DNA of 64,000 bases, from the IMG/VR virus record IMGVR_UViG_3300037466_003065, positions 96,001 to 160,000 of that record. One strand, written 5' to 3'. Positions 9,698 to 24,484 of this stretch are shown here, piece by piece. This DNA is from a virus. The notes beneath the pieces were generated by a model. It saw nothing but the letters and a program-made list of their open reading frames with translations, searched no databases and was not told the origin of the DNA. Every line of letters begins with the position of its first letter. The first letter of the stretch is position 1. Position numbers and translations under genes: made by a program.

Positions 9698-10678
9698 TCA
9701 ATCGCGTTGGATTCTTCGTTTCATTCGGGCCGGCCCGTCGTCGATGGGTGGGGGTGCGGGTGGGGCCGAGGGTGTGGGGGTAGCAGCCCGCGACCGGGGC
9801 GGGCTCACAGCCACCCCCACCCCCGTCGCGTCGGTGCCTGTCACTGAATGCCTTGCTGGGTTTTGGGGTAACCGATCGGCCCACACCATCGGCGTCATCA
9901 GCGACACGTTGCCCTGCTGAGTGTGCACCTCCATCGTCCCCTGACACGCACGACAGACCGTGTCGAAGCGGAACGCCTGCCCCTGCTGCATCCGGTAGCG
10001 GTGCGCGATGGCGAGCTGTGGCTCGCGGCAGTGGGGGCAAATGTGGTGCTGGCCGTTGTTGCCGCTTGGGAACGGGCAACCCATCCGGATCTCGCCCGGC
10101 CGCAGGGTCAGCTCACGGTGCTCTCGCTCCAGCCGTCGCCGCGACTCGTCCGGGTCGACGCGGAGCTGCTGCTCGACCTGGGCACGCATCCGCTCCATGA
10201 ACGCCCCGCCCCGCGAGACCGTGTCTTGGGCGTAGAACTGGGTCTGGCGGTCGCCGAGGGATTGGCTGACCGGGGGCAGGTGGCCCTCGATCAGGGTGCG
10301 AGCCCAAGCCGAGACGATCTCGTAGTTGCCGTAACTGCCGGCGCCGAACGTTACCCTGTACTCTTGCCTGCAACGATCGCACGCACCCCAGCATTCCACC
10401 TGCAGCCCGGGCTCGAACTGGAGTTGGCCCTGCCGGCACGCCGGGCACATACCGCGGGTGTTGTTGGCGTACTGTCGGTCTTCTTCGGTGACCGGGATCA
10501 TGGGATTGTCGACCGTCTCGGCCATCGTGTTCCTGTCGCTTATTCCGTAGGCGTCGTACGCCATCAGGGCACCTCTGAGTGCGTCGTCTGCGTGCTGGTC
10601 GGCGATCGGCATCGGGTATGCGTATCGCGACGACGGCTCGTTCGCGATGTTCGCCCGGTGCGTGCTCAAGGGTGGCAT
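9698..10678 (-). CDS. Zn-ribbon-containing hypothetical protein (start uncertain)
   Basis: Pairs CPAC/CDRC and CPHC/CRAC; Pro-rich linker; ends ARMKRRIQRD. Confidence 0.6.
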   Translation of the reverse strand: MPPLSTHRANIANEPSSRYAYPMPIADQHADDALRGALMAYDAYGISDRNTMAETVDNPMIPVTEEDRQYANNTRGMCPACRQGQLQFEPGLQVECWGACDRCRQEYRVTFGAGSYGNYEIVSAWARTLIEGHLPPVSQSLGDRQTQFYAQDTVSRGGAFMERMRAQVEQQLRVDPDESRRRLEREHRELTLRPGEIRMGCPFPSGNNGQHHICPHCREPQLAIAHRYRMQQGQAFRFDTVCRACQGTMEVHTQQGNVSLMTPMVWADRLPQNPARHSVTGTDATGVGVAVSPPRSRAATPTPSAPPAPPPIDDGPARMKRRIQRD

Positions 10679-10737
10679 GAAAGCCCGATACTCCCGCAGG
10701 TGCTCCCGCCACTTGGCCAGCGTTTCGGCGGGCGGGA

Positions 10738-11736
10738 TCAGGCGGCCTCGGGCAGCGGCCGACCCTCCACGATCCGGTTCTTCTGCTTGGCGAGGAGCAC
10801 CCGCAGCATCGGGCCCAGGTCGAAGTTCGCCCAGACGCACTCGACCTTCTTGACCTTGGTCTTGGTCTGGCCCACCTTGCTGTCGATCTCGAACCTGATC
10901 TTCTCGAAGCCCCTGAACCAGGTGTCGTACTCCTCCGAGTTGTAGCCGCTCACCGCGATCAGCGACTGCGGGTTCCGCCGTGCGTCCTCCATGATCAGGT
11001 GGGCCATCTCCTCGTGCTCCTCCCGCGTCATCTCTCGGCGGTACGCCTTTGGCGTGACGCGCTTTGAGGGCAGATAGGGCGGATCGTAATACTTGTAGAG
11101 CCTTTTGCCACGCAGTACGCCGTGGTTCATGATGCGGGGGATCGCCGTCCGGAAGTGGCTGTGCCACAGGTATACTCCTTTCCAGAAGGCAGCCGTTTCG
11201 GTGATTGCGGCCACCACGTTCTCGTACGCGTTGATGTCGCCCGGCTTGCCGCCGCGGGTGCGGGTGCCGATCCCGAAGTCTTCGCCCAGGCCGGCCCGGC
11301 TCATCCTCGACTGGACGAACCAGACCACGGCCAGCTCCATCCGCTTCCGCTTGTCGAACGAGTCGACCACGTCGGGGTCACGGGTGATGCTGGCGTCGGC
11401 CTGTCGGTAGATCTCCTTGGCCGTCCTGAACTGGGACTCCTCGTACGGGATCGCCTCGAGCGCAGACTGCAGGCCCGCCGCGTCCTCCTGAACGCACTGG
11501 AAGAAGTTGTACTTGAACCAGTCGTCGTCGTTATAGATGCGACATGGGACGAAGCTGGCGTTCTGGGTGAGGACGCCGCCCCCGCCGAACGCGTCGAAGA
11601 ACCCGTCGACCGGCGTGCCGGCCAAGGCGGCCTCGACGATGGGGGCGAGCAGGATCTTCCGCTGGTACCACTTGCCCCCCCAAATTTTCGTAAAAGGCCA
11701 TACATTGAGCAGCTTGGCCATCTGTGACTTCTTCAC
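10738..11736 (-). CDS. dam: DNA adenine methyltransferase, Dam/D12 class
   Basis: WGGKW, FDAFGGGGV (motif I), IYNDDD, YYDPPY (motif IV), VSGY. Confidence 0.92.
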   Translation of the reverse strand: MKKSQMAKLLNVWPFTKIWGGKWYQRKILLAPIVEAALAGTPVDGFFDAFGGGGVLTQNASFVPCRIYNDDDWFKYNFFQCVQEDAAGLQSALEAIPYEESQFRTAKEIYRQADASITRDPDVVDSFDKRKRMELAVVWFVQSRMSRAGLGEDFGIGTRTRGGKPGDINAYENVVAAITETAAFWKGVYLWHSHFRTAIPRIMNHGVLRGKRLYKYYDPPYLPSKRVTPKAYRREMTREEHEEMAHLIMEDARRNPQSLIAVSGYNSEEYDTWFRGFEKIRFEIDSKVGQTKTKVKKVECVWANFDLGPMLRVLLAKQKNRIVEGRPLPEAA

Positions 11737-11978
11737 GCCAACACCTCCGGGTGTGCCTTGATCTTCATCTGGAGCGTACGGACGCCGATGCCGAGCGACT
11801 GGGCCGTCTTCGCGCGACGACCGCCGAACACCTGCAGACGCTCGCGGATCGTGTCCAGTTCGAGCTGGGCCAGCGTCGGCCTGTCATCGGCCGGCGGCAG
11901 GGCCACGGACGCCCCGTTCGTCGCGCGACAAGCGACGAGGCGAGGAGTCCGTGGCGAGATGCGGATCACGTTGCTCAT
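11733..11978 (-). CDS. Fis-family helix-turn-helix protein
   Basis: TLAQLELDTIRERLQVFGGRRAKTAQSLGIGVRTLQMKIK matches the Fis/NtrC C-terminal HTH pattern. Confidence 0.75.
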   Translation of the reverse strand: MSNVIRISPRTPRLVACRATNGASVALPPADDRPTLAQLELDTIRERLQVFGGRRAKTAQSLGIGVRTLQMKIKAHPEVLA

Positions 11979-12043
11979 TCCTGTAATCCTTTGATGGTTA
12001 CTTTTGCCAGTCGGCGTGGTGCTGACCGGCTAATGTCGCTGGG

Positions 12044-12071
12044 ATTATAACGGGCGCGTAATTGGATGCAA
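12044..12071 (-). promoter_or_regulatory. sigma70-type promoter
   Basis: Minus strand TTGCAT-N16-TATAAT in an AT-richer intergenic gap upstream of the Fis-like/dam genes. Confidence 0.55.
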
Positions 12072-12088
12072 GCAGTTAATGCGCGGGG

Positions 12089-12454
12089 TTATTTCAAATA
12101 CCGCGCGTCGCACGGCAACCCCTGCACCACGGCGATCTTGGCCGCCATGGCAGCCTTGGCACCCTCCCTGTCCATGCGGAGCAGCTCCTGTGCCTGCTCC
12201 GGGGAGATGGGCCACGCCTCGCAGGCGTAGTCGATCCGGTTGTCGCCGCTCTCGTCGCGGCGGTCACGCTCGATGAGGAGACGGGCCGACACGTACCGCA
12301 GCCCGTCTGCGTTGACGACGACCTTCCGATCATCGTGGTCGAGCTTGCAGAAGAGCTGAGCCTGGTACTCGGGCCAGTCGAGACGCCACAGGTTCTCGCC
12401 GTCCTCGACTCCGTCTTCGTACCAATCACGATGCACGTTGGTAATCTGGAACAT
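12089..12454 (-). CDS. hypothetical protein
   Basis: Start MFQITNV after AAAGGAG. Confidence 0.7.
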   Translation of the reverse strand: MFQITNVHRDWYEDGVEDGENLWRLDWPEYQAQLFCKLDHDDRKVVVNADGLRYVSARLLIERDRRDESGDNRIDYACEAWPISPEQAQELLRMDREGAKAAMAAKIAVVQGLPCDARYLK

Positions 12455-12467
12455 GGGACTCCTTTCG

Positions 12468-13265
12468 TTAGTGGGCGGGGTATACGATGGACACGTCGGG
12501 CATCGCACATGCAGTGCACGCGCCGCATTTGGCCTTGGGCGAGCCGGCCACATTCTTGTAGCGACCGGTCTCCTCCAGGTTCTTGATGGTGGCGTAATAG
12601 CGGCTCGCAACCGCTGGACATACGATCACTTTCTGGCCCGTCTTCTCCGTCCTCAAGCGGGCCACCCGCTTCGCCTCGACCAGCCGTTCCTTGATGCTCA
12701 TGGTGCGGTCGCCCGCCACGTAGCTGACGGCGCCGGCGGCGTACAGGAACCGCCGCAGGGTCTGGGCCGACTCCCGCACGACGACCCGCCACTTCAGGAC
12801 GCGGCGGTAGAAGCGGGCCTTGCTCGGCGACTCGACCGGGAAGTGGACGGGCACGCCCTTCTCGTCGAGGAGCTCGGTCAGCTCCCGGAGGTTGTCGACG
12901 AACTCGGGCGTCGCGTCCTGGGGCTTGGGCAGGCTGCCGTTGGTGCTGAACCGGAACCAGGGGATCGGCTTTCGCCGGCGACGCACCTCGTCGGTCGCCT
13001 TGGCCACGACGGCTGCAGGATCCGACCGCTCGTGCCGGGCCAGCTTTTGCCTCAGTTCGACCCGGTCGAACCGCTGCTCGGTGTTGTAGGCGTAGCACCG
13101 GACGTCCTTGTCGCCGTCGACGTTCTGCGGGTGGTAGCGGCAGGACATGTCGCAGTTCTTGCCGCCGGACTCTCCGAAGTTGAGCGAGGCCGACCCCTCG
13201 ACCCCCTTGTCGAACGACCCGAGGACGGGCGCAGTGCTCTCGATGACGGTCAGTGCGATCTTCAT
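12468..13265 (-). CDS. GP88-like Cys-rich phage protein (possible Fe-S/radical-SAM-like)
   Basis: NCDMSC...CYA, WFRFSTNGS, CPA, CGACTAC, ending IVYPAH. Confidence 0.6.
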   Translation of the reverse strand: MKIALTVIESTAPVLGSFDKGVEGSASLNFGESGGKNCDMSCRYHPQNVDGDKDVRCYAYNTEQRFDRVELRQKLARHERSDPAAVVAKATDEVRRRRKPIPWFRFSTNGSLPKPQDATPEFVDNLRELTELLDEKGVPVHFPVESPSKARFYRRVLKWRVVVRESAQTLRRFLYAAGAVSYVAGDRTMSIKERLVEAKRVARLRTEKTGQKVIVCPAVASRYYATIKNLEETGRYKNVAGSPKAKCGACTACAMPDVSIVYPAH

Positions 13266-13283
13266 GATGTCTCCTTGAAAGAA

Positions 13284-13310
13284 GAGGCCCCGCCGAACGG
13301 GCGGGGCCTC
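13284..13310 (-). terminator. intrinsic terminator
   Basis: 11-bp stem GAGGCCCCGCC / GGCGGGGCCTC followed by UUCUUU on minus. Confidence 0.8.
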
Positions 13311-13340
13311 GTGAACCTCTGCGACGTAGTAGGGCTACGT

Positions 13341-13541
13341 TTACTTCAGATGAGCGTACGGGTGTCGGGGGCAGTCGTCCTTGTGGATCTGGGGCGGCTT
13401 ACCGTCGAGGCGGAACGCCCCGCAGTGCGGACACTTGTTGGGCATGCCCTGCAGGGACACGACCTCGACGGCATTCTTGAGGTCTACTGTGGATCGCTCA
13501 ATCAGATCCAGATCTTCAGAAGGAATCGGGCTCGAACTCAT
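13341..13541 (-). CDS. small Zn-finger hypothetical protein
   Basis: CPHCG...H..DC motif. Confidence 0.45.
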   Translation of the reverse strand: MSSSPIPSEDLDLIERSTVDLKNAVEVVSLQGMPNKCPHCGAFRLDGKPPQIHKDDCPRHPYAHLK

Positions 13542-13728
13542 CTCGTTTCACCTCGATCGTGTCGCCAGCCTCCAGGCAGGCCGTGTCCTCCAGCAATTCT
13601 ACCTCCAGCGTGTCGTCGTAGGGTTGGGAGTCGCTCACCAACCTCGCCTTCGCACTGGTGATGTTGCCGGAGGACACGGTGCCCTCGAGGCCCGCAGACC
13701 ACGTGTCCATGGGGCCGCGTCCGATCAT
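13516..13728 (-). CDS. small acidic hypothetical protein
   Basis: The ATG overlaps the upstream stop. Confidence 0.5.
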   Translation of the reverse strand: MIGRGPMDTWSAGLEGTVSSGNITSAKARLVSDSQPYDDTLEVELLEDTACLEAGDTIEVKRDEFEPDSF

Positions 13729-15113
13729 GCCGGGTTACCTCCGAGGGATTTGACGACCACCCCGAGGGCGCCGATCGCATTGTTGATCACGGCATCCTTG
13801 GCGGTCACCAACTGCTGGTAGCCGGCGATTGTCTTGGCCTGCTCGGTGAGCTGGGTCGCCAAGCCGTCGATCTGTTGCCGGGCTTTCGTGATCGCTGCGG
13901 TCGCCTCGTCGATCGCACCTTTCTGGCTGGCAATCGTGGCCTGAGACGCCGTGAGCTGGGCGGTCAGGTCGGCGATCTTCTGCAGGTTCGGATCGACGGG
14001 GGCCGGCGCCGCCTCGACGTACGGGTGCGACCCGGCGTACGTGATCGCCGGCGCCGTCGCTCCGCTCAGGTCGAGGCTGACGACCAGCGTCTCGTCGCCG
14101 AGCGTCCACGTGTGCACCTCGGTGGTCGGGAAGACCATCGTCCCCTTGTTCGTGTCGTTCTGGAATTTGGGGGTCTGCACCATCGTGTGCGACCCGGTGG
14201 CGATCAGTTTCTGGTGCCAGAGGATGAAGGCGTTGTCCTTCTTCATCTGGGCCTCGTTCTCCGGCGACACGTTCTCATACTTGAACGTGCGGTCGTTGCC
14301 GCCACCGATCCGCTGCGGGAAGTAGATGATCTGCCGCCCGCCGTGGCCGAGCACCATCCACACGAGCGTGCTCTGCTCGTTCGGGGTGGGCCCACGGTAG
14401 GGGCCGCCGTTCTCGACGCCGTCGAGCACCTGGTCGGAGCACTCGACGTAGGCGCCGACCGCGTTGGCCTTGTCCCACGCGTTGAGGCGGTCGAAGGCCA
14501 CCATCAAGTAGTACAGGGGCCACGCGGTGCCGCGGGCGTTGCGGGCGTACAGGTCGGCCGTCGACACGTCGGACGCGTCGAGGTACGCCTGGTGCTGGGC
14601 GCCGTTGCCGTAGTACGCGTTGATCAGGTTCTGGCCGTTCAGGTTGATGCTGATCGGCACGTTGGGGGCGAGGGCCTTCCACCGCTGGTAGCGATCCGCC
14701 GCGACGCTGGCGAGCGTCCAGCCGACCATGCTCGGGTGCGGGGCGGCCACGGCGCCTGGCACGCTGGGGGCGACGGCCGCCGGGAAGTAGATCTGCTTGG
14801 CCAAGTCGGCGTCGGACACCTTGCCCCGCTGGCCGTCGAGGCGGTTCAGGTCGGGCTCGTCGGGCTGCCCGACCGAGATCAGGTAGGGGTCGGTCGCGAG
14901 ATCGGCGGGCCAACCTTGGGCGTCCAGTGCGTCGCCCTGAATCACGTAGAAGAGGCCGGCGGCCTGGGCGGCGGCACGCCACGCCGCAACCGTCACCGAC
15001 TTCTGGGGGCCGCTGTCGTACCGGTGCAATGCGTTGCAGCCCATCGACTTGATCCAGTCGAACGTGCCGGGATGCTGGGCGTCCATCCCGATGAGGATCA
15101 GAGGCTTGTCCAT
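13725..15113 (-). CDS. putative glycoside-hydrolase-like (TIM-barrel) protein with C-terminal coiled coil
   Basis: 462 aa; QPDEPD, ADLY, AYVEC, VLGHGGRQIIYF pattern resembling GH-like barrels; heptad-rich C-terminus; AAGGAGAG RBS. Confidence 0.55.
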   Translation of the reverse strand: MDKPLILIGMDAQHPGTFDWIKSMGCNALHRYDSGPQKSVTVAAWRAAAQAAGLFYVIQGDALDAQGWPADLATDPYLISVGQPDEPDLNRLDGQRGKVSDADLAKQIYFPAAVAPSVPGAVAAPHPSMVGWTLASVAADRYQRWKALAPNVPISINLNGQNLINAYYGNGAQHQAYLDASDVSTADLYARNARGTAWPLYYLMVAFDRLNAWDKANAVGAYVECSDQVLDGVENGGPYRGPTPNEQSTLVWMVLGHGGRQIIYFPQRIGGGNDRTFKYENVSPENEAQMKKDNAFILWHQKLIATGSHTMVQTPKFQNDTNKGTMVFPTTEVHTWTLGDETLVVSLDLSGATAPAITYAGSHPYVEAAPAPVDPNLQKIADLTAQLTASQATIASQKGAIDEATAAITKARQQIDGLATQLTEQAKTIAGYQQLVTAKDAVINNAIGALGVVVKSLGGNPA

Positions 15114-15181
15114 TCGATGCTCTCCTTGAAAGGGTGTAATTGTACCTATCGGCCTTCAGGCGGCGGGGTCTTTCGTGATGG

Positions 15182-15403
15182 TCATGATACCTCTTGAAGT
15201 TCTGATCGTTGGAACCACCACCCGCCGTACAAATGGTCGTCCCTGGGGAAGCAGTCGACGGTGACGAAGTACAAAACAAGGGGAGGTGCCCCGGCGAGGG
15301 GCACCTCCCTGACTTGCTCGATCGTCCCCGTCTCGTCCTGGTAGCACCCGGCGGTGTAGCTGGCGCCATCGTGGACGATGCGGACGCGATCGTTGGGCTT
15401 CAC
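15182..15403 (-). CDS. small SH3/KOW-like hypothetical protein
   Basis: GTG start MKPNDRVRIV...GTIEQV overlaps the upstream stop. Confidence 0.55.
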   Translation of the reverse strand: MKPNDRVRIVHDGASYTAGCYQDETGTIEQVREVPLAGAPPLVLYFVTVDCFPRDDHLYGGWWFQRSELQEVS

Positions 15404-15735
15404 GGCTTGATCTCGATCTTCTCGCCGTTCCGCATCCGCTCCATGTCCTCCGTCGAGATCTGGATGAGGCCATGGTCGTCCATCCACCGCTCGGCGCGGT
15501 CGCGGCTGCCGAAGCGGATGTGCGAGTTGTCCTTGTCCCGCGTGTCGAAGAACTCGACCTTGAAGATCAGGCCCCGGGCGAACGCCTCGGCGTCCTGATC
15601 CTTGTCCGTCGCGTCCAGCTCGAGCATGACGCACGGGTAATACTTCTTGTGCGACGCGGGGTCGGTGTAAACCTCCGGGTTGTTGTACGGGTACGGGGGC
15701 GGCGTGTTGTCCTTCGGGTTCTTACTGCCTGCCAT
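15400..15735 (-). CDS. hypothetical protein
   Basis: 111 aa; AGGAGG RBS. Confidence 0.7.
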   Translation of the reverse strand: MAGSKNPKDNTPPPYPYNNPEVYTDPASHKKYYPCVMLELDATDKDQDAEAFARGLIFKVEFFDTRDKDNSHIRFGSRDRAERWMDDHGLIQISTEDMERMRNGEKIEIKP

Positions 15736-16210
15736 GTTGCCTCCTGCTGAAGAGTTTGAGGTTGCCGAACGTATTGCGGGCGTTGGAAGCCAGGTGGGTC
15801 ATCTGCATCGCGGCCCCACTGCCCGTGCCCAGTTGGCCGGCGGCGGACTCGATCGCGGCTACTACGCCTTCCGCGTTCAAGGATCCGTCCGCCCTGAGCA
15901 AGTCGCCTTCTCGACAGGTCTCCTGGTAACGTTCGTGGACGGTGAGCTGCTTGGACAGGCCGTCGACCGTCGCCGCGACGATCGAATCCATTTGCCGCTC
16001 ACTATAATGCTCGCTGATTAACGATTCCAGCACTTCTTTTAGCACCGGGGTTAGGGCCTCGGTGATGGTTCCGATTAGTCTTTGATCTCGGCTGGGTTCC
16101 ATACTCCTTTCTTCGGCGAGTCTTGCCAGTGATGTCACCGACAAAAGACTGGCCCCCGGAGTCCCGAGGGCCAGTCCTTGTCGATAAGTTGTTCCGGTTA
16201 CATTACGCAC
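15722..16210 (-). CDS. hypothetical protein (start uncertain)
   Basis: Fills the gap between neighbours; lower GC. Confidence 0.4.
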   Translation of the reverse strand: MRNVTGTTYRQGLALGTPGASLLSVTSLARLAEERSMEPSRDQRLIGTITEALTPVLKEVLESLISEHYSERQMDSIVAATVDGLSKQLTVHERYQETCREGDLLRADGSLNAEGVVAAIESAAGQLGTGSGAAMQMTHLASNARNTFGNLKLFSRRQHGRQ

Positions 16211-16580
16211 CCATGCGACGCTCGGCGGCGTACTCGAGCTGGGTGAGGTGCTCCTGTCTCAGGTGCTCGCACCACTTCTCGTAGTGCTCCCGCTGCTCCG
16301 GGGTCATGGCGGCCTCCACGATCTCCAGCTCGACCCGCTGGCCGTCGCAGGTACGGCAGGGCACGTCGTAGTTGCCCCGCAGGAGGTCTTCCTTGAAGTC
16401 AGGATCCTCGTTCAGCTCGTCCGACGTGAAGCCATTGCTGAACGCGGCGGGCCACTGCACGCCAGAGCCGTGACACGTGCCGCAGACCTTGTACTCGGCC
16501 GGCAGCGACGCCGTCACTTCGAGGATCATGTCCTCGTTGTCCGGGTCGCTGGTGACGTAGGTAATTTCCTTCATGGGCAT
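16203..16580 (-). CDS. DnaJ-type Zn-finger phage protein
   Basis: CGTCHGSG...CRTCDG; ends AERRMGA; GGAGG RBS. Confidence 0.75.
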   Translation of the reverse strand: MPMKEITYVTSDPDNEDMILEVTASLPAEYKVCGTCHGSGVQWPAAFSNGFTSDELNEDPDFKEDLLRGNYDVPCRTCDGQRVELEIVEAAMTPEQREHYEKWCEHLRQEHLTQLEYAAERRMGA

Positions 16581-16866
16581 GGCGACCTCCCAGAACGTTG
16601 GTGTTGATCCAGTCCTCTTCGGCCTGCAGGGCCTCGGCGCGGCTCAGGAAGCCCGTCAGCTTCGGCCCACCGCTCGGGGCCATGTCGGCGTACCACCGGA
16701 CGCCGTCCGGCGTACTGTAGGGCTCCACGTGGCTCGCCCGCTCGACCTTGGCGTCCGGACTGAGGATCTTGGCGGCGAGCGCGTCGTCGTGGAGGAAGGT
16801 CATCTCCCCGCTACGACTGACGGAGATGATTTTGATTCGCTTCGGCGACGGGCTGGTTGTATTCAT
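16399..16866 (-). CDS. conserved hypothetical protein of the DUF2997/DUF1257 neighbourhood
   Basis: ASHVEP...WYADMAPSGGPKL.GF..R.EAL.AE..W motif. The frame continues ~60 codons into the next gene. Confidence 0.6.
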   Translation of the reverse strand: MNTTSPSPKRIKIISVSRSGEMTFLHDDALAAKILSPDAKVERASHVEPYSTPDGVRWYADMAPSGGPKLTGFLSRAEALQAEEDWINTNVLGGRHAHEGNYLRHQRPGQRGHDPRSDGVAAGRVQGLRHVSRLWRAVARRVQQWLHVGRAERGS

Positions 16867-17014
16867 CGGTGAGCTCCTCGGTGATGACGGCGCCGCCCAT
16901 GGCGACGGTAAGGGGTTCGGTCAGCGCGGTGCAGCTCGGGCCGGCGACGCCCTCGACCTCGGTCAGGACGGGCTGGGTGCGGTCGCGGGCAACACTAACA
17001 CGGATCTCTGCCAT
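16811..17014 (-). CDS. DUF2997-like protein
   Basis: EVEGVAGPSCTALTEPL..AMG...EELTDEY; start MAEIRV after AGGAG. Confidence 0.75.
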   Translation of the reverse strand: MAEIRVSVARDRTQPVLTEVEGVAGPSCTALTEPLTVAMGGAVITEELTDEYNQPVAEANQNHLRQS

Positions 17015-17052
17015 CGGAATCTCCTGTTGGGGGTGTTGGTTGTGGGGAATGG

Positions 17053-17427
17053 TTACTGGACGGCGACTACCTGCATCACGCCGTTTTCGGCGGCGCGACG
17101 CTCGACCCGCCAGCCCTGCGGGCCGTACAGTTCCGTCATGGCCGCCTCGGCGAGCTGGAGGCGGTACTCCTGGACGAACGCGTCGAGCTCGTCCTCGGCA
17201 CCCCACTTCCCCTCGTAGTTGTCGTACTGGACGTTGCCGGTCGCGAAGTTGATCGCGACCGGGTAGCTCCAGTCCTTGAGGTAGAGGGCGGCGTCGGCAC
17301 TGACGGTTTCGCTGTACAGCTCGACCTTCTGCGGCTTGATGTCGATCCGCACGCCGCGGGCCTTGGCCGTGCTTTCGAGCAGCGTGACGTTGTTCATGCC
17401 GGGTGTCTGCGTGACCTTGTGGGACAT
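17053..17427 (-). CDS. DUF1257/Ycf35-like protein
   Basis: MSH start, W.YPVAIN..TG.VQYDNYEGKWG, QEY. Confidence 0.75.
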   Translation of the reverse strand: MSHKVTQTPGMNNVTLLESTAKARGVRIDIKPQKVELYSETVSADAALYLKDWSYPVAINFATGNVQYDNYEGKWGAEDELDAFVQEYRLQLAEAAMTELYGPQGWRVERRAAENGVMQVVAVQ

Positions 17428-17455
17428 TGACTGCCTCCTTGAAGGCTATGGGGTG

Positions 17456-17893
17456 TTACTGGGCGGTCGCCTTGCGCGACGACCGCAACGTGTACCGGCC
17501 GTTCCGCTTGTGCTTCGGGTCGGCACGGCGGAACAGGTCGGAGTGCTCCTTGATCGCCTGCCCTACCACCTTGCCGAACGCGTTCGACTTCGTGGGGTAG
17601 CCGGCGTTGATCGCGGCGTTGGCCATCTCGTCGATCGTCATCGGCCGCTTGGCCGTTTGCTGGATCCGGACGAGCAGGTTGTGCAGCCGTTCGCCGTCCG
17701 CAGCCCTGACCAGGGTGACCTGTTCGGGGAGCGGGTCGCCGAGCGGCGATTTGGTGATCGCCGCGATCTGGTTATCAATGACGTGCATTTCCTGGGTGAG
17801 TGCCTCCCTCCTCTCGGCGAGCGCGGTGACCTGGTTGACCTTGTCGGCCGCGATCTTCACGAGGGCCATTGGGTTCTCTACGACAGCTTCCAT
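17456..17893 (-). CDS. coiled-coil plus winged-HTH protein
   Basis: N-terminal coiled coil, then PMTIDEMANAAINAGY...VGQAI...FRR...GRYTL. Confidence 0.6.
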   Translation of the reverse strand: MEAVVENPMALVKIAADKVNQVTALAERREALTQEMHVIDNQIAAITKSPLGDPLPEQVTLVRAADGERLHNLLVRIQQTAKRPMTIDEMANAAINAGYPTKSNAFGKVVGQAIKEHSDLFRRADPKHKRNGRYTLRSSRKATAQ

Positions 17894-17984
17894 TGTGATT
17901 CTCCGAATCCGGCCCGCGAATGTGGTAGCCGCCCCGGGCCGTTGGGTAGGCCGGAGGGCAGTATACCAGATCCGGGGCCCGCGA

Positions 17985-18353
17985 CTACGCCTGTGTGGCC
18001 GATGGCTTCTTCGTGTAGAGCTGCTCGAACATCTCGTCGCCCCCGCCGTGCTGGTGGTGCCAGCATGACCAGCGGAACTGCCGACGCTCGTTCAGGTCGA
18101 CGAACTTGTCCATGGCGTCGTAGAAGGCGCCGACGTTGCCCCTCTTGGCGGCCTTGATGTCGGTGTAAATCTTCTTCTCACTGGCGTTGCACAGAGACGG
18201 GTCGCCCAGCTCGGACTCCATGAACTCGATGCCGTCCGCGACCAACTCCTCCATGGTGGCGTGCGTCGTGATGCGGATGCCGCTGTGGTAGGCGACCTTG
18301 TCGTCGGTGACAATGACGAGGACGAAGTCTCGCTGCCTATTCTGCTCGCTCAT
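17985..18353 (-). CDS. hypothetical protein
   Basis: 122 aa; AGGAG RBS. Confidence 0.7.
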   Translation of the reverse strand: MSEQNRQRDFVLVIVTDDKVAYHSGIRITTHATMEELVADGIEFMESELGDPSLCNASEKKIYTDIKAAKRGNVGAFYDAMDKFVDLNERRQFRWSCWHHQHGGGDEMFEQLYTKKPSATQA

Positions 18354-18373
18354 GCTGGCTCCTGAAAAGTGAT

Positions 18374-18402
18374 GGGCCCGGCTGGGGTTGCCAGCCGGGC
18401 CC
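18374..18402 (-). terminator. intrinsic terminator-like hairpin
   Basis: 12-bp perfect stem GGGCCCGGCTGG / CCAGCCGGGCCC followed by AUCACUUUU on minus. Confidence 0.7.
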
Positions 18403-18426
18403 GGGTCGAAAGAGTAGATGTGGGGG

Positions 18427-18993
18427 TTAGGCGCCGGCCGGGGCGAGCTCCTCCTTGGTCATGGGTTCCCCGGCGGTCGCCGGCGCGTCCGGCTTGCGGC
18501 CAAGAAACTCGTTGAGGATGGCCCGCAGGTCGGCCTCCTCGGGCTCCTTGCCCTCCATGAACTTGATGCCGAGCGTCGCGACCTCCTTGACCTCGGAGAT
18601 CTGGGAGATGGCCCGGCCGGTCATGAAGACCTCGCACGCCGCCTTGTTGACCGTGATCGCGGAGAGGAAGTCCTTCTCGCTGATCGCGCCCTTCTTCATC
18701 AGGGCGTACAGCTTGCCCGGGTCGGGCACCTCCTTCCGCTGCTTGCCGAGGGTGGCCTCGCAGATCTCGCCGACCACCTTGCCGGCGCCCTTCTCGAACA
18801 TCGTGTCCTTGACCTCGGATTTCATTTCGTCGCCGAAGTACGCGACCATCTGGGCGGCGACCTTGATCAGGTCGATGCGGCGGTCGGAGATCTGCTTCTC
18901 CATGTCGACCGCGTCCAGGATCGAGACGTCCTTCTTGGCCGCCTTCGCCTTGGGGGTGCTCGCCTTGCCGTTGTTGCTGGTGTTCTTAGCCAC
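18427..18993 (-). CDS. hypothetical protein
   Basis: 188 aa, Lys/Ala-rich N-terminus, AAGGAGCATC RBS. Confidence 0.75.
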   Translation of the reverse strand: MAKNTSNNGKASTPKAKAAKKDVSILDAVDMEKQISDRRIDLIKVAAQMVAYFGDEMKSEVKDTMFEKGAGKVVGEICEATLGKQRKEVPDPGKLYALMKKGAISEKDFLSAITVNKAACEVFMTGRAISQISEVKEVATLGIKFMEGKEPEEADLRAILNEFLGRKPDAPATAGEPMTKEELAPAGA

Positions 18994-19014
18994 TGTGTGA
19001 TGCTCCTTCTGAAG

Positions 19015-19497
19015 TTAGTCCCGGCGGATCACCCGGCGCACGCGGCCGGATTGATCTGCCTCTTCCGCCGGCTGTCGTCCCCGCCGCCGGCCCGCGGGTG
19101 CCACAGACGCCTGTGGCGTAGGGTGCCTTGCGGTTACGCTCGGCTGTGCCGCAGCGTAACCTACAAGGTTTGAGAGGTCAAGGATTTTGTCGAGGATGTG
19201 GGCCAGCGTTAGTCCGCCGGTATACCCCGCCTCCTCGACGTCCTCGTACCCCTCACGGATCTTCTTGTGAAGCTGCTTGGTGACCTCCAGGAGGGCGTCG
19301 GCCTCCGTGACGTGCGGCACGTGCTTCTTCTCGTTCAGCACCTTCATGCCGGTCGGGCCCCATGCGAACACGGGGTAGTAGAGGTCGCCGATCTTCTCGA
19401 CGCGTCCCACGTACACCTTGTTGGCTCCGTGGTAGTTGTGGAGGGCGGTAACCAACCAGTTACGGCGATCCCTCCAGTTCATGGTGTGATTGGGCAT
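19015..19497 (-). CDS. WGR-domain protein
   Basis: NKVYVGRV...FAWGPTG...KQLHKKIREGY; ends GRVRRVIRRD. Confidence 0.7.
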   Translation of the reverse strand: MPNHTMNWRDRRNWLVTALHNYHGANKVYVGRVEKIGDLYYPVFAWGPTGMKVLNEKKHVPHVTEADALLEVTKQLHKKIREGYEDVEEAGYTGGLTLAHILDKILDLSNLVGYAAAQPSVTARHPTPQASVAPAGRRRGRQPAEEADQSGRVRRVIRRD

Positions 19498-19540
19498 TGG
19501 GCTCCTCGGTATTCAGTTGTAAAGATCGTCGCGACGGGCG

Positions 19541-20566
19541 TCAGTCCATGATGATTCGGCGCCGCACCCGGCCGCTGGACGCATCCTCCTGAAGTTGCCT
19601 GACCGCCTCACCCAGTGGGGCGAACGCCGCCTTCACTGCCTGCTGGATGGACGAGTTCTTGTTCAAGTCGCTGATGCTCACGCCGGCCACCGCGGAGCGG
19701 GCCTCGGCGACGCGCCGCAACACCTCCTCGTCGGCGAACTGGGCGAAGTTCTGCACGCGGTCGAGGACGTTCAGCAGGTTCGTGATCGCCTCGGGCCGCC
19801 GCGTGCCCGACTCCAGCGAGCCCAGGTTGATCTGCTCGCAGACGTCGGCGACCTCGCCGAAGACGTTCGACATGACTGCGTCGAGCTGCTCGCGGGCCTT
19901 GTCCTCACACATCTTCTTGATCGACCGGCGAACCTCCTCGGCGTCGGTGGGCGAGAGCTGGGAGACGTCGACCTCGGCGTCGCTCATCGGGGCAAGCCGC
20001 CGGAGCGTCCACCGCACCGCGAACTTGTCGACGAACGTGTCGGGCGACGGGAGCAGGGGCCTGATCTGGAAGAAGTGTTCGGGGTTCTCCGTCTGGAGCT
20101 GCGGGATCGCCTCGGACTCCCACTTGTCGGCCAGCTCCTGGGCGAGACGGTCGCGTTCCTGCTTCTTGGCCTCGAGCTGCTGGAGCAACTCACCCATCTT
20201 GTACATCGAGACCATGTAGCTGCCGGCGACCTTGTCGTCTCCGCTCTTGTCGTTGACCGCGTAGAACTTCATCAGTTCGCCGATCTCGCGGGCGTTCGCG
20301 TCGAGCCTGCCCCAGAGGTGGTGGGTGTCGTAGATCCAGGACGGCCGCGTCATCCGCTTGGCGCCGACCTCGGTCGTGCCGCCGTACTGGGCCTGGGCCT
20401 CGACCTTCACCTTGTCCTTGTCGCTCTTCGCCCGGCCGCTGGGCCGCTTGATCGTCAGCTCGAGCAGGACGAGGTTGGCCTTGAGGGTGGGCCGCTCCAT
20501 CTCGGCGATGACTTGGTCACTGACTTGGGGACTGCGGCTACGACGGGGGTTCGTTGCAGTTGCCAT
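19541..20566 (-). CDS. DUF3150-like helical protein
   Basis: Start MATATN after AAGGAGCATC. The pattern Y.V.....EL..QLE..K.E...LA...W.....LP....F..KF.V.W resembles DUF3150. Ends GRVRRRIIMD. Confidence 0.55.
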   Translation of the reverse strand: MATATNPRRSRSPQVSDQVIAEMERPTLKANLVLLELTIKRPSGRAKSDKDKVKVEAQAQYGGTTEVGAKRMTRPSWIYDTHHLWGRLDANAREIGELMKFYAVNDKSGDDKVAGSYMVSMYKMGELLQQLEAKKQERDRLAQELADKWESEAIPQLQTENPEHFFQIRPLLPSPDTFVDKFAVRWTLRRLAPMSDAEVDVSQLSPTDAEEVRRSIKKMCEDKAREQLDAVMSNVFGEVADVCEQINLGSLESGTRRPEAITNLLNVLDRVQNFAQFADEEVLRRVAEARSAVAGVSISDLNKNSSIQQAVKAAFAPLGEAVRQLQEDASSGRVRRRIIMD

Positions 20567-20622
20567 TGCGATGCTCCTTGAAGAGTTTATTTTTGGACGA
20601 ACGAAAGATATGTTAGTGGGTA

Positions 20623-21081
20623 CTAGACGTTCAGGTGGGCGTACGCCTCCCGGACGGATTGGGCGAAGGTGCGACAGGTGACCTTGTAGCCCTCGTCGTC
20701 CTTGGGGTCGTCGACGGTGCACGCCGACCCGTTCTTGGTGATGCGGTATCCCTGCCCGTGCAGCCACTTCAGGCGGGACGCGAGGTGGCACCCGTCGAGG
20801 TCACCGCACTGCGAGCACGGCGCGTTGTTCATCGAGTGCCCCTCGTCCATGCCCATGCGCCGCAACTGCTGGTACTGCAGCGTGGACTCGTCGGGGGCCT
20901 TGGGCTTCCGCGCCCGGATCAGCCACCTCGCCACGAGGGTGCCGATCTCGTAGTCGATGTTGTCGATCGGCCGGAGCGTGATGTCTCGCTTCGCCGCCAG
21001 TTTCTCGATCGCGTCGGTCGCCTCGTCGACCACGCACTTCTCGTCGTGAGTGAGCTGGTCGTAGATGTCACTTGCGGGCAT
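20623..21081 (-). CDS. hypothetical protein with CxxC
   Basis: 152 aa; AGGAGG RBS. Confidence 0.7.
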   Translation of the reverse strand: MPASDIYDQLTHDEKCVVDEATDAIEKLAAKRDITLRPIDNIDYEIGTLVARWLIRARKPKAPDESTLQYQQLRRMGMDEGHSMNNAPCSQCGDLDGCHLASRLKWLHGQGYRITKNGSACTVDDPKDDEGYKVTCRTFAQSVREAYAHLNV

Positions 21082-21101
21082 TAAGCCTCCTTGTTGAAGG
21101 G

Positions 21102-21452
21102 TTAGCGGAGATTGGCGTCGTCGTTGCGTTGCTCCTGTTCACAGCCCGGACACAGCTCGCCGAACTGGTTGGGCTTCTCGCATTCGGGGCAGGCGTTCAC
21201 GCTGTCGTCGACGTCGGGCTCCTCCGGCGGGCCGTAATCTTCGTCAACGTGTTCGCAGGTGGTCAGGTCGCCGTTGAAGTCGACGCGGTCGCGGGGGCGG
21301 TGCTTCTTGTAGATGATGACGCGGTTTGGTTGCTCGTCGACCTCGTCAAGGTCGAACTCCTCGGCCATGGACGAAGTGTCATCGGCCGTGAGCGGCTTAT
21401 CGAGGTCGCTAACCTTCGACAGCTTCTCGATGGCCTGTCGGACTGTGATCAT
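21102..21452 (-). CDS. acidic hypothetical protein with Zn ribbon
   Basis: CPEC...CPGC; GGAGGCATC RBS. Confidence 0.7.
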   Translation of the reverse strand: MITVRQAIEKLSKVSDLDKPLTADDTSSMAEEFDLDEVDEQPNRVIIYKKHRPRDRVDFNGDLTTCEHVDEDYGPPEEPDVDDSVNACPECEKPNQFGELCPGCEQEQRNDDANLR

Positions 21453-21658
21453 GATGCCTCCTGGGGCCAGTCGGTAAGGGTTTCAGACAGCTCGCGACGC
21501 ACGTCGTCGAGCCGGGAAGGTGGAACGCGCCGCAGCAGCGTCTCGACGGCCTGCTGAAGGTCGCCCACCTCGTGATCCGGTTCGTCGTTCTCGCCGTGCC
21601 GCCGGGCCGCATCGATGATCGTGTCGTACAGCTCCTGATGCGATTTGGGCAGACTCAT
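21449..21658 (-). CDS. small hypothetical protein
   Basis: 69 aa; AGGAGGCATC RBS; HEVGDLQ motif. Confidence 0.7.
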   Translation of the reverse strand: MSLPKSHQELYDTIIDAARRHGENDEPDHEVGDLQQAVETLLRRVPPSRLDDVRRELSETLTDWPQEAS

Positions 21659-21683
21659 GATGCCTCCTGTTGGGAGTGAAGGG

Positions 21684-22049
21684 TTAAGTGTGACGTGGTG
21701 GAGGGGCAGGGATAGTCGTCCTCAGCCATGCCTCCATCTCTTCGAAGTCTTGGCGTCGAATCTCGGGAACCGCATGGTGCTCGAGCTGACAGATTTGATC
21801 TACCTCCTCCTGGTTGAGGTCGAACCACTCACCGATGACGCGACGATGTTGGAACTCCTGATGAATCAGCACTTCCAGGAGTGTGTAGTCCCAACTGAAC
21901 CAGAATCCGATGAGTTCGTGCCGGATACCTGTACCCCGGTCGTAGTCACGCATGCGATTGGCGATCCTGAAGGCGCGTCCGACCTTGTACCAACCGGTCA
22001 CTGGTGAACGAATGAGGTAGACGAAGCCTCCGCACGGCGTCAGCCGCAT
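21684..22049 (-). CDS. T5orf172/GIY-YIG-superfamily protein
   Basis: GFVYLI...YKVG...R...LE..IH......R..GEWFDL. Confidence 0.8.
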   Translation of the reverse strand: MRLTPCGGFVYLIRSPVTGWYKVGRAFRIANRMRDYDRGTGIRHELIGFWFSWDYTLLEVLIHQEFQHRRVIGEWFDLNQEEVDQICQLEHHAVPEIRRQDFEEMEAWLRTTIPAPPPRHT

Positions 22050-22759
22050 TAGCGAGCGGCGTGGAATGCGCCGTATGCGATCGCGGCTAGGATCGGGCTC
22101 GTCTTGATGCTTGACTTCGCCAGCAGGCTCTGCTGTACGGGAGTGAGTCGCTCCCAGACGATCTCTCGCAGGGCTGCGGCTTCGTCGTCGGTGAGGGCTT
22201 TGGCCCATTCTTTTACCTCCTGTGATGGCGCCGCTGTCGTAGATCTACTCTCTAATGCTCTATCTCCGGATTTAGATCTATCTCCTTCTAGTAGTGAGGT
22301 TTCGCGTAGGCGGGAATTTCCCATTGATGACTTCTTCTCATCAGCGGGAATTTCCTGTTGGCGGGAAATTCCTTTTGGGTGAGACCGAGGGTACTTCTGA
22401 GCTTCCTGCACAACCCAAGAAGGGTGCCTCTTACCCTTGTAGCCACGAGAGACCTTCTTTAGGATGGTTGACTCCTCCAGCTCGACGAGTGCCCGGTAAA
22501 CTGACGATTGATCAAGCCCGCTGAAACGCATGATGGTTTCTACGCCGGGCCATGCCTGACCTCCTTCTGCCTCATTGGCGAACTTTGCCATTACACCTAA
22601 AACGCCCCGGGCGGCCGGGGTTAAGACTGCCCACCAGCCGGTTTCAAACCAGCTATGGTACATCTTGAACCACCAGCCATCCCGGGGCTTTGCTCGGAAC
22701 TCAAGCTCCTGATCGGTTACGATCGCGTACCGATGGAGTCGCTCTGGATCTTGGGCCAC
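22049..22759 (-). CDS. helix-turn-helix replication-initiator-like protein
   Basis: LTPAARGVLGVM..FAN....AWPGVETIMRFSGLDQSSVYRALVELE, typical of phage initiator N-termini; low-complexity linker; lower GC. Confidence 0.65.
   Translation of the reverse strand: MAQDPERLHRYAIVTDQELEFRAKPRDGWWFKMYHSWFETGWWAVLTPAARGVLGVMAKFANEAEGGQAWPGVETIMRFSGLDQSSVYRALVELEESTILKKVSRGYKGKRHPSWVVQEAQKYPRSHPKGISRQQEIPADEKKSSMGNSRLRETSLLEGDRSKSGDRALESRSTTAAPSQEVKEWAKALTDDEAAALREIVWERLTPVQQSLLAKSSIKTSPILAAIAYGAFHAAR
22310..22372. repeat. three 12-bp repeats GCGGGAA(T/A)TTCC inside the initiator-like gene
   Basis: Copies at 22310-22321, 22344-22355 and 22361-22372, next to an AT-rich stretch at ~22250-22300. Confidence 0.7.
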
Positions 22760-22774
22760 ACTGATGCCTCCGTG

Positions 22775-24484
22775 CTAGTCGTCCCGGCGAGACCTCCTCT
22801 GCACGCGGCTGGGCTCCGAGCCGCTGGAGGTACAGGAGGTCTGCGACCTGCCCAGCAGCATAAACGTCTTGCAGGCTTCACGCATCTTCTGAAGATCCCC
22901 CGCCCACTCCGGCGTCTTCGAGAGGGGGGTGAAGGTCTTGGCCTTCTCGATCATCCAGTCGATGTCCAGTCGCTTCGACTTGGTCACCCCGGCCCGCCGC
23001 ACCGCGTCCTCGACGAAGCTGGTCAGCTCGGCGCCGCTGCAGCCATCGGTGATGTTGTCCTCGGCGAGCAGGGCCAGCTTGCTCTCGTCAGACGACGTCA
23101 GGTCGAACCGCTTCTGCCGCACTTTGGTGACCAGGATTTGGTGGCGGATCTCGAAGTCCGGGAGGTCGACGAAGCACACCTCGTTCACGCGGCCCTTGCG
23201 GAGCAGCTCGGGCGGGAAGCCGCCCAGCCGGTTGCCGGTGAACCCGACGATCATCTTGTTGTCGGGCAGGGCGAGCTCGGTCAGCACCATCTGCAGCACC
23301 GACCCGGTGACCTCGTTCCCGGAGTTGCCCTGGGCCGCGTTGTTCAGGCCGGCCTTGTCCAAGTCGTCGAGGATCAGGACGGCGCCCACGGCCTGTGCGA
23401 CCTGCAGGATGCGGCGGGCGTTGTGCTGCGATTCGCCCACCCACTTGCTCTGTGACTCTCCCAGGTTCCAGATCAGGGCCGGCCGCTTCGCCCGCTTACC
23501 CAGCGCGAGGGCGAACTGGGATTTGCCGGTGCCCGGCATGCCCAGCACGGCCAGGCCGGTGACGCCGCTGATCGCGTGCTCCGCGAGCCACGCCTCGTCG
23601 ACGTCGAGGTTCTCGTCGAGGTACTGGTTGAGCGGCTCGTAGCCCGGGAAATCCGACGCGTTCTGGATTTTCTCGGGCGGGATGTAGAGCACGCCGGGGA
23701 GGTCGTTGAACACCCGGCTCTTCTCCGACTGGACGACCTCGAGGAACTCCTCGAGCTTGTCCAGTCGGTACTGGGCGCTGGCGAGGCCGACCGCGTCCTC
23801 GAAGCCTTGGTAAGTGAACCCGCGGCCCATCCGGACGATCGCCCGCCGCTGCTCGGCGTTGGGCTTGGGCTCGACGTCGACGTTGTCCAGGGCTTCGCCC
23901 AGCGTCTCGTCGTCCGGGAGGGGAACGAGCTCGGGCTTGAGCTCGGGCAGCTCCTTCGGCTTCTCGTCGGTCGGCGTGATCAGGACGATCATCCGCTGGC
24001 CCCGCTGGCCGTCCCGGTAGTACCCCGGCTGGTGCATGTTGGAGTGGACGATGTTCTTGATGAACTGCTGGACGATCACGTCGTCCTTCAGCACGCCGTT
24101 CCAGTCCTTGAGCACGAACACGATGTCGCGCTCGAGGTTCATGCCCTGCGGGATCTCGAACCGGCCGGCCGGCGTGACCGCACGCCCGTTGATGTCGTCC
24201 AGCTCCTTCTGCGAACCCAGCATGATCTGCAGGGCCCGCAGCGGCGACGTAGTGCCGGCGTTCAGGGGCTGGATGGACGGCTTGCCCTTGTAGAAGCCGC
24301 ACATCTTGTCGTGGATCCAGAAGTCGACCTTCTCGGCCTGCTTCGAGATCCGCTCGTTCTGCCGGTCGACGGCCGCCCGCACCGCCTCCTGGCACCGGTA
24401 GGGCTCCTCGGTGACCAGCCAGATGATGCTGTGGCCGGCCTTCCAACGGTTGCGGATCCACTCGGGGAGTTGCTTGACGTTCAT
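22775..24484 (-). CDS. Ycf46-like AAA+ ATPase
   Basis: N-terminal degenerate AAA (VTEEP.R, VLKDW), Walker A GMPGTGKS, SKWVGES, Walker B LILDDLDK, TGNR...PPELLRKGR, SGAEL; start MNVKQL after AGGAGACATC. Confidence 0.88.
   Translation of the reverse strand: MNVKQLPEWIRNRWKAGHSIIWLVTEEPYRCQEAVRAAVDRQNERISKQAEKVDFWIHDKMCGFYKGKPSIQPLNAGTTSPLRALQIMLGSQKELDDINGRAVTPAGRFEIPQGMNLERDIVFVLKDWNGVLKDDVIVQQFIKNIVHSNMHQPGYYRDGQRGQRMIVLITPTDEKPKELPELKPELVPLPDDETLGEALDNVDVEPKPNAEQRRAIVRMGRGFTYQGFEDAVGLASAQYRLDKLEEFLEVVQSEKSRVFNDLPGVLYIPPEKIQNASDFPGYEPLNQYLDENLDVDEAWLAEHAISGVTGLAVLGMPGTGKSQFALALGKRAKRPALIWNLGESQSKWVGESQHNARRILQVAQAVGAVLILDDLDKAGLNNAAQGNSGNEVTGSVLQMVLTELALPDNKMIVGFTGNRLGGFPPELLRKGRVNEVCFVDLPDFEIRHQILVTKVRQKRFDLTSSDESKLALLAEDNITDGCSGAELTSFVEDAVRRAGVTKSKRLDIDWMIEKAKTFTPLSKTPEWAGDLQKMREACKTFMLLGRSQTSCTSSGSEPSRVQRRSRRDD

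Follow-up and report, generated by a model that had tools for sequence, protein, structure and literature searches.

Why should four unrelated proteins of a single phage end in the same short peptide? The question is raised by a 64,000-nucleotide stretch of DNA (the window; bases 96,001-160,000 of the 184,787-bp virus record IMGVR_UViG_3300037466_003065, 64.8% G+C, rated complete), in which a Zn-ribbon protein, a WGR-like protein, a DUF3150 protein, and a p97/Cdc48-like AAA+ ATPase carry similar C-terminal tails. An earlier note on this DNA, made from the sequence alone, took the tails for a shared docking tag (a hub-binding peptide, a compartment or capsid import signal, or a degron) that links the four proteins into one machine. 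We compared them with the rest of the genome and with more than 200 loci of the ATPase family from mycobacteriophages, Pseudomonas and Rhizobium phages, large soil phages, and verrucomicrobial chromosomes. From these comparisons we infer both the docking role of the tag and the place of docking: with a probability of approximately 0.55, the tails bring their carriers to one site of a p97-like AAA+ machine.

The four tails are present in the sequence as the earlier note quoted them. The Zn-ribbon protein ends in ...GPARMKRRIQRD (stop at 9698), the AAA+ ATPase in ...PSRVQRRSRRDD (22775), the WGR-like protein in ...SGRVRRVIRRD (19015), and the DUF3150 protein in ...SGRVRRRIIMD (19541), and all four are spelled R-[VM]-x-R-x-[IS]-x-x-D(D). 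In a six-frame set of open reading frames (ORFs) of the whole genome (n = 2980, each of at least 30 amino acids), this motif or a looser form of it stands at the C-terminus of these four ORFs only, all in frames with high G+C content at third codon positions (GC3). When the last 30 residues of 197 proteins were shuffled, the mean was 0.004 matching proteins per genome, compared with the four observed, so that chance is rejected. A motif-free test treated the tails as a clique, each pair of which reaches a BLOSUM62 score of 20 or more across the final nine residues; none of 2000 shuffles reached a 4-clique at this threshold, and 29 of 2000 reached a 3-clique. A broadened pattern allowed anywhere in the six-frame ORFs has nine matches and is terminal in these four alone, the other five lying 41-102 residues from the ORF end.

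At the DNA level, three of the five codons for G-R-V-R-R, the stretch common to the WGR-like and DUF3150 tails, are synonymous variants of each other, the codons of the Zn-ribbon tail differ (CGA, AAA, AGA), and the DNA downstream of the tails is unrelated. Thus, the similarity does not reflect a DNA repeat but has been maintained in the proteins; the tag is under selection as a peptide, as the earlier note had supposed.

The same figures bear on the possibility that the tail is a generic basic extension that binds nucleic acids, or a by-product of Arg-rich coding in a GC-rich genome, with no specific reader. The spelling used in the window is unusually Arg-rich, and two of the carriers, the WGR-like and Zn-ribbon proteins, are probably nucleic-acid binders. 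However, the off-frame ORFs of the genome, which are more Arg-rich, contain zero matches, the shuffled expectation is negligible, the spacing is fixed, the terminal Asp is conserved, the position is exclusively terminal, and the orthologous tails elsewhere combine a single Arg with acidic and hydrophobic residues. We regard this explanation as very improbable. Arg-rich codon bias, which the earlier note had named as a way in which its proposal could fail, is excluded by the off-frame ORFs, the shuffles, and the clique test.

The ATPase provides the link to other genomes. The AlphaFold2 model of the window ATPase (predicted local distance difference test score, pLDDT, 89.4; predicted template modeling score, pTM, 0.87) superimposes with residues 2-545 on residues 208-766 of human p97, which form its D1 and D2 domains (Z 24.6, 473 aligned residues). 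A single Walker A motif (GMPGTGKS at residue 315) is present, in the second domain. According to the model, the protein is a p97-like double-domain ATPase with a degenerate D1-like first domain and a predicted active D2, lacking the p97 N domain. Its last 15 residues (555-569) are disordered in the model and lie at the position of the p97 C-terminal tail. The Walker B motif of the window ATPase reads D-D (residues 373-374; 23363-23368), as opposed to D-E in 75 of 77 aligned homologs, a change that could slow the hydrolysis of ATP in this lineage; the sole other exception is the closest homolog (P0001), which has the non-canonical tail RARRQTVGAE. A PADLOC comparison yielded generic AAA (IetA) similarity and nothing more. 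The [ST]-x-E-E motif of the degenerate D1, considered as a possible reading site, is conserved in ATPases with and without the tail and is uninformative.

Most phage ATPases of the family end in [RK]-x-[LI]-[DE]-[LIVF], located approximately 12-18 residues beyond a conserved GRARPAS segment, e.g., KVRVLDL in gp96 of mycobacteriophage Corndog. An R-x-h-[DE]-h ending (h, hydrophobic) that follows GRARPAS and a disordered linker was found in 132 of the 205 non-redundant ATPases and in 56 of the 80 ATPases from viral loci. The window ATPase has the same architecture, ending in ...LLGRSQTS-(13 residues)-RVQRRSRRDD, compared with WAxGRARPAS-(12-18 residues)-RxLDL in the family. Some ATPases end otherwise, one class having ...(Q)E..NPF[IV]P... 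and another class ending in ...LLTRPELELERSFDL... (L029, L031, L092, L102, L103, L127, L128, L153; L084, L101, L111, L117); their sequences suggest that these peptides are alternative tail codes.

The tail is common to the ATPase and an operon partner in three gene contexts, the other members of which are unrelated according to ORF clustering of the loci. With the crude gene calls of the comparison loci, the strict terminal pattern was found in 21 of 65 partners and in 17 of 8258 other ORFs (Fisher P = 4e-36). Type A comprises 57 loci, that of Corndog gp96, gp95, and gp93 among them; here the partner belongs to phrog_11021 and is followed by a 113-residue His-rich protein. The motif occurs twice in this partner, internally in the GRALDL type and terminally in the RALEL type, approximately 20-25 residues apart, e.g., GRALDL...SRALDL (L063:4374-5165; Corndog gp95). 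The adjoining 113-residue protein (L063:5178-5522; Corndog gp93) has an invariant His-rich end, HSHDGGxTWHxH, that looks like a metal site. In Type B (L002, L004, L009, L056, L059, and the window), the partner is a DUF3150 protein ending in RGLDL or RTLSLD; next come DUF1257, DUF2997, and another small protein.

Type C is formed by Verrucomicrobiota chromosomes, where a rhomboid-family membrane protein is encoded two genes upstream of the ATPase. Its tail fits S-x-R-[IMV]-x-R-L-E-[LI] in all 25 species, and in 23 the ATPase ends in RRME[LF]. No conserved catalytic Ser or His is present in this rhomboid-like protein, and the tail is its most conserved segment. The protein (e.g., L095:8259-8915, with orthologs in L162-L237) is derlin-like, its tail is invariant, cytoplasmic, and a match to the RRMEL of the ATPase, and the operon also encodes an ECF (extracytoplasmic function) sigma factor, a radical SAM enzyme, a thioredoxin-like protein, DUF2997, and a TPR protein. 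By analogy, the verrucomicrobial module may be a bacterial counterpart of derlin-p97 coupling. Among verrucomicrobial ATPases the tail is kept in 47-50 and lost in 21-24, depending on the pattern used, a comparison that is confounded by clade; the search for gene families that track tail loss in Verrucomicrobiota was set aside for the same confounding.

A signal for capsid packaging or for import into a phage compartment would fit a tag that is common to unrelated proteins of a large phage. In Verrucomicrobiota, however, the same tail system is chromosomal, its neighbors being a sigma factor, a rhomboid-like protein, and a radical SAM enzyme; virion genes are absent there. Moreover, in the window the four tagged genes are located in the replication/early region on the minus strand, opposite to the structural genes. 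This is the least credible of the explanations considered here.

The spelling of the window tails does not follow the family consensus [RK]-x-[LIVM]-[DE]-[LIVMF]-COOH and is thus a variant. Its relation to the other tails can be seen in the DUF3150 protein, a homolog of the Type B partners (phmmer E 2e-8 to 7e-4). There, GRVRRRIIMD lines up, in register, with GRFRRGLSL and GQFMRGLDL of the orthologs, the Gly being invariant. An exhaustive profile search returned 365 members of the DUF3150 family; among the best 150 representatives, the C-terminus is nearly always [FY]-G-basic-x-x-R-x-h-x-h, in many spellings. Recurrent Asp-ending tails (KFRRILND, NFRRIRLD, FNRRILRD, and RSRRRVTFD) match the R-R-x-I-x-x-D of the window. 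In addition, one ATPase of the family (L028) ends in RVRRVLDI, which equals the WGR-like tail of the window over the first five residues and has Leu for Ile at the sixth. Judging from these alignments, the window tail is positionally homologous to the tails of the orthologs, and its spelling is lineage-specific and alike on all four carriers. Loss of the tail in orthologs, which the earlier note had offered as a refutation, is not what was found: orthologs keep it at the same place.

Relatives of this particular phage are distant. When viral contigs were scanned for the ATPase and for the DUF3150 protein as single queries, nothing was found, a word-based search returned an ATPase homolog of 29% identity at best and for DUF3150 the query itself only, and alignment-based scans of viral and metagenome contigs gave ATPase homologs of at most 36% identity. 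Contig scans with two Asp-ending DUF3150 proteins (P0095 and P0110) returned nothing. A scan of viral contigs with back-translated GRVRRxIxxD followed by a stop codon gave seven matches, all of which were taken as chance: six lie in ORFs of less than 40 residues, and the seventh (L246) is antisense to a gene for a 255-residue protein in a record that has no ATPase homolog.

Of the tagged proteins in the window, DUF3150 is securely assigned. It scores 29.3 bits against Pfam PF11348 (gathering cut-off 24.9), the 136-sequence family profile matches it with E 4.6e-72, and an Atlas search returns DUF3150 clusters. The protein of 19015-19497, which the earlier note had called a WGR protein, matches WGR (PF05406) over profile positions 15-77 of 79, so that the match is nearly as long as the profile, although its score of 15.4 bits is below the Pfam cut-off of 22 (E 0.021); hence the designation WGR-like. 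A word-based search returned no homolog of it other than itself. For the Zn-ribbon protein, Pfam gives weak zinc-finger matches and nothing stronger, and there is no Atlas match. Its gene is real but does not fill the ORF: it starts at approximately 10678 and not at 11167, since GC3 amounts to 0.82 at positions below the adenine methyltransferase stop and to 0.40 at those above it. The coding signal begins below this stop, and the candidate starts are 10678 and 10612. Neither the WGR-like nor the Zn-ribbon protein has relatives in the collected ATPase loci, and both are therefore read as lineage-specific recruits, probably nucleic-acid-binding adaptors or clients.

The distribution of the tag also has to be weighed against a role as a degron. 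In that case the tail would direct a host protease to destroy its four carriers at a set time, e.g., through a basic signal of the ClpX type, or would have them unfolded as substrates and not as partners. Basic C-terminal ClpX signals of the MuA type exist, and ClpA bears an auto-degradation tag at its own C-terminus; an exposed basic C-terminal peptide on a flexible linker, as seen in the window, would suit such a role. The family consensus R-x-L-D-L, however, is not basic and to our knowledge resembles no class of bacterial degron. Moreover, hundreds of loci from hosts as distant as Mycobacterium and Verrucomicrobiota retain the tag on both the ATPase and the constant operon partner, which suits assembly better than turnover, and the partner often has two copies. 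Destruction or unfolding of the carriers is, in our estimate, quite unlikely.

Under the docking interpretation, the four tails would be one phage's spelling of a conserved C-terminal peptide that marks the ATPase and its partners in a module of p97/Cdc48-like ATPase, DUF3150, DUF1257, and DUF2997. Placed at the end of a flexible linker, the peptide would bring each carrier to the same binding site of an ATP-driven remodeling machine, with DUF3150 as the constant tagged partner and the WGR-like and Zn-ribbon proteins as recruits of this lineage. If the ATPase ring reads the tag, its own tail would be a self-ligand displaced by the partners, and a two-copy partner would bridge two protomers. 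The core of the earlier proposal, a selected tag that joins the proteins into one machine, is strongly supported by the comparisons of selection at the protein level, of the partners' tails, and of orthologs; its variant of capsid or compartment import is disfavored.

Which component reads the tail is a separate matter. Sequence and profile comparisons identified the ATPase as the sole component common to all module types, a statement bounded by the 6-10 kb of flanking sequence in each locus. No homology between the companions of Type A and Type B was found with hhalign, and the 136-sequence DUF3150 profile misses the phrog_11021 partners. Proteasome-family (PF00227) and ClpP-family (PF00574) proteins were not found in the phage genome, with positive controls. 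DUF1257 and DUF2997, which the earlier note had put forward as possible readers, are not distributed among the module types as the tail is; as universal readers they were rejected, being absent from Type A loci (with the exception of one intermediate locus) and present beside NPF-tailed ATPases. Since the ATPase alone is common to the module types, the phage lacks a proteasome or ClpP ring, and DUF1257 and DUF2997 do not follow the tail, parsimony points to the ATPase ring. We consider the ring itself the leading candidate for the reader, at somewhat less than even odds; a small untagged companion (for the window, one of DUF1257, DUF2997, and cluster 13) is a possible but tentative choice, a conserved host protein is unlikely, and some other reader is more doubtful still.

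The alternative that comes closest to the docking interpretation keeps the tag and moves its receptor: the ATPase and the other carriers would dock, alternatively or together, on one separate hub, for which DUF1257, DUF2997, or cluster 13 (in the window), the His-rich 113-residue protein (in Type A), or a conserved host protein are candidates. Several observations weigh against reading by the ATPase and in part favor such a hub. The AlphaFold2 monomer of the window ATPase leaves the tail unplaced, with pLDDT below 50, and the canonical tail of a Type A ATPase is likewise unplaced (block means 59 and 47), so that the tail is undocked in both models (a weak negative). The ATPase has no p97-type N domain, the site that reads the p97 cofactor motifs. 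The ATPase itself bears the tag, at the position of the cofactor-binding tail of p97, and by analogy with Mpa and Bpa on the 20S proteasome this would fit a third-party receptor at least as well. Conserved small untagged companions are present in every module type. Further precedents are the HbYX and GQYL tails, which dock on the 20S proteasome, and the p97 tail, which docks on PUB and PUL domains. In addition, the tail of a Type A ATPase is not significantly closer to that of its own partner than to those of other partners (P 0.23), so that fine-scale co-variation within Type A is not demonstrated, and the searched collections contain no close relatives that would replicate the spelling of this phage. 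A separate hub is, on the other hand, opposed by the lack of a third family common to the module types at the sequence or profile level, by the occurrence of DUF2997 and DUF1257 with NPF-tailed ATPases and their absence from Type A loci, and by the lack of a phage-encoded proteasome- or ClpP-family ring. We give this arrangement a real if minor chance.

More speculatively, and as a tentative extension of ATPase-centered docking, the system might be a prokaryotic counterpart of the p97-cofactor network, in which a terminal code respelled in each lineage would assign adaptors and clients to a p97-like unfoldase. In the window phage, the ATPase might then remodel or extract proteins on DNA by way of the WGR-like and Zn-ribbon proteins, and in Verrucomicrobiota the coupling might run through the derlin-like rhomboid pseudoprotease, resembling the extraction of membrane proteins in endoplasmic-reticulum-associated degradation.

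Table 1. Tagged proteins, their terminal tags, and untagged companions of the module in the window
Feature	Position in window	Strand	Evidence
p97/Cdc48-like AAA+ ATPase, 569 amino acids	22775..24484	-	Pfam AAA PF00004 E 7.5e-17; phrog_8638 3.4e-46
ATPase tag R-V-Q-R-R-S-R-R-D-D, behind disordered linker	22778..22807	-	pLDDT <50, residues 555-569
DUF3150 partner, 319 amino acids, C-terminus GRVRRRIIMD	19541..20500	-	Pfam PF11348, family profile, Atlas clusters, tail alignment
DUF3150 tag G-R-V-R-R-R-I-I-M-D	19544..19573	-	sequence; in-register ortholog alignment
WGR-like protein, 155-160 amino acids, C-terminus GRVRRVIRRD behind Pro/Ala/Ser-rich linker	19015..19497	-	
WGR-like tag G-R-V-R-R-V-I-R-R-D	19018..19047	-	sequence
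Two-zinc-ribbon (CxxC...CxxC) protein, ~326 amino acids, C-terminus ARMKRRIQRD behind Pro-rich linker	9698..10678	-	GC3
Zn-ribbon tag A-R-M-K-R-R-I-Q-R-D	9701..9730	-	sequence
DUF1257-like companion, untagged	17053..17427	-	clusters with DUF1257-type neighbors of Type B loci
DUF2997 companion, untagged	16811..17020	-	Pfam PF11211 E 8.1e-7; also matched in DUF1257/DUF2997 hidden Markov model (HMM) search
'Cluster 13' companion, conserved, untagged	16399..16866	-	phmmer E 4e-15 to 8e-10 versus Type B ORFs

The window has the Type B layout, with DUF2997, the DUF1257-like protein, and the cluster-13 protein near the ATPase module (Table 1). In the DUF1257-like cluster, the member from L002 matches PF06868, and a purpose-built HMM matches the window protein as well. 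The module is dispersed in the window phage, as the ATPase and DUF3150 genes, adjacent in the Type B relatives, are separated here; between them (21684-22759) are encoded a T5orf172/MUG113-type (GIY-YIG-like) protein and an HTH_36 protein. The cluster-13 ORF overruns the ends of its homologs by approximately 60 codons into an Arg-rich stretch that overlaps the next gene (16203-16580), whose small product has a zinc finger of the DnaJ type (CxxCxGxG); a frameshift, an assembly error, or a genuine overlap might account for the overrun. A 382-residue protein with no Pfam match (8122-9270), encoded two genes further downstream than the tagged Zn-ribbon protein, ends in a polyacidic, Asp/Glu-rich tail of approximately 70 residues, and its homologs are found near the ATPase module in two other loci (L012 and L061).

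A terminal peptide shared in this way shows, genome by genome, which proteins belong to the machine, can serve as bait for the receptor, and can be deleted or swapped. It might also offer a small portable peptide with which to direct proteins to a phage unfoldase. Linear-motif recruitment is a hallmark of eukaryotic p97, rhomboid-fold recruiters included; if it is true that a p97-like ring reads the tag, the recruitment of cofactors by linear motifs would not be a eukaryotic invention. The ATPase family is widespread, yet the literature that we found describes neither its function nor its tail, and a search of the literature on DUF1257, DUF2997, DUF3150, Ycf46/Ycf35, and phage Cdc48-like ATPases likewise found no functional study and no description of the tail.

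Among the closest known systems is the cyanobacterial and plastid set of Ycf46 (AAA), Ycf35 (DUF1257), and DUF2997; a duf2997-ycf35-fed7 cluster is listed in PMC4284462. As in that set, a Ycf46/SpoVK-type AAA protein, DUF1257, and DUF2997 occur together; unlike it, the phage module also contains DUF3150 and bears the shared tag. No function or tail is described for the Ycf46/Ycf35/DUF2997 set in the literature found.

With respect to the mode of action, the tails resemble the hub-binding tails of replication proteins, such as the DDIPF of SSB and the clamp-binding tails of T4 gp43, gp55, and gp33, where unrelated proteins reach a common hub through a peptide at the end of a flexible linker. 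They differ from these in sequence class and have no link to SSB or the clamp: the window tails do not fit the clamp motif QL[SD]LF, and the RQLDL ending of some relatives is a resemblance only. The SSB of the same phage (65458-66333 of the genome, outside the window) ends in ...FRQDDIPF, a classic hub-binding tail; thus, the phage uses at least two different terminal-peptide docking codes.

A second parallel is provided by the HbYX tails of PAN, Rpt, and Cdc48 and by the GQYL tail common to mycobacterial Mpa and Bpa, in which case an ATPase and a non-ATPase bear the same tail and dock on the same receptor. In these systems, as in the p97 tail recognized by PUB and PUL domains, a disordered extension directly follows the last ATPase domain and ends in a short conserved peptide, and the family described here shares this arrangement. 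Unlike HbYX and GQYL, neither the four tails nor the family consensus has a penultimate or near-terminal Tyr, no peptidase ring is encoded by the phage, and the tail is common to the ATPase and its own operon partners.

The closest principle described so far is the cofactor system of p97. The VIM, VBM (Arg-rich), and SHP motifs on unrelated proteins bind p97, the VBM consensus being EhRRRRLxhh; rhomboid-fold recruiters include the protease RHBDL4 (through a VBM) and the pseudoprotease Derlin-1 (through an SHP motif); cofactors can bind by two modules at once; and the C-terminal tail of p97 is itself bound by PUB and PUL domains (PMC5389986). We do not claim sequence homology between these motifs and the tails. 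The two systems differ in that the ATPase of phages and bacteria lacks the N domain that reads VIM, VBM, and SHP, the motif is strictly C-terminal, and the ATPase is tagged as well. They are alike in that short linear motifs are carried by unrelated proteins of a double-ring AAA+ machine, the ATPase superimposes on D1-D2 of p97, and the tagged partner of Type C is a rhomboid-fold pseudoprotease.

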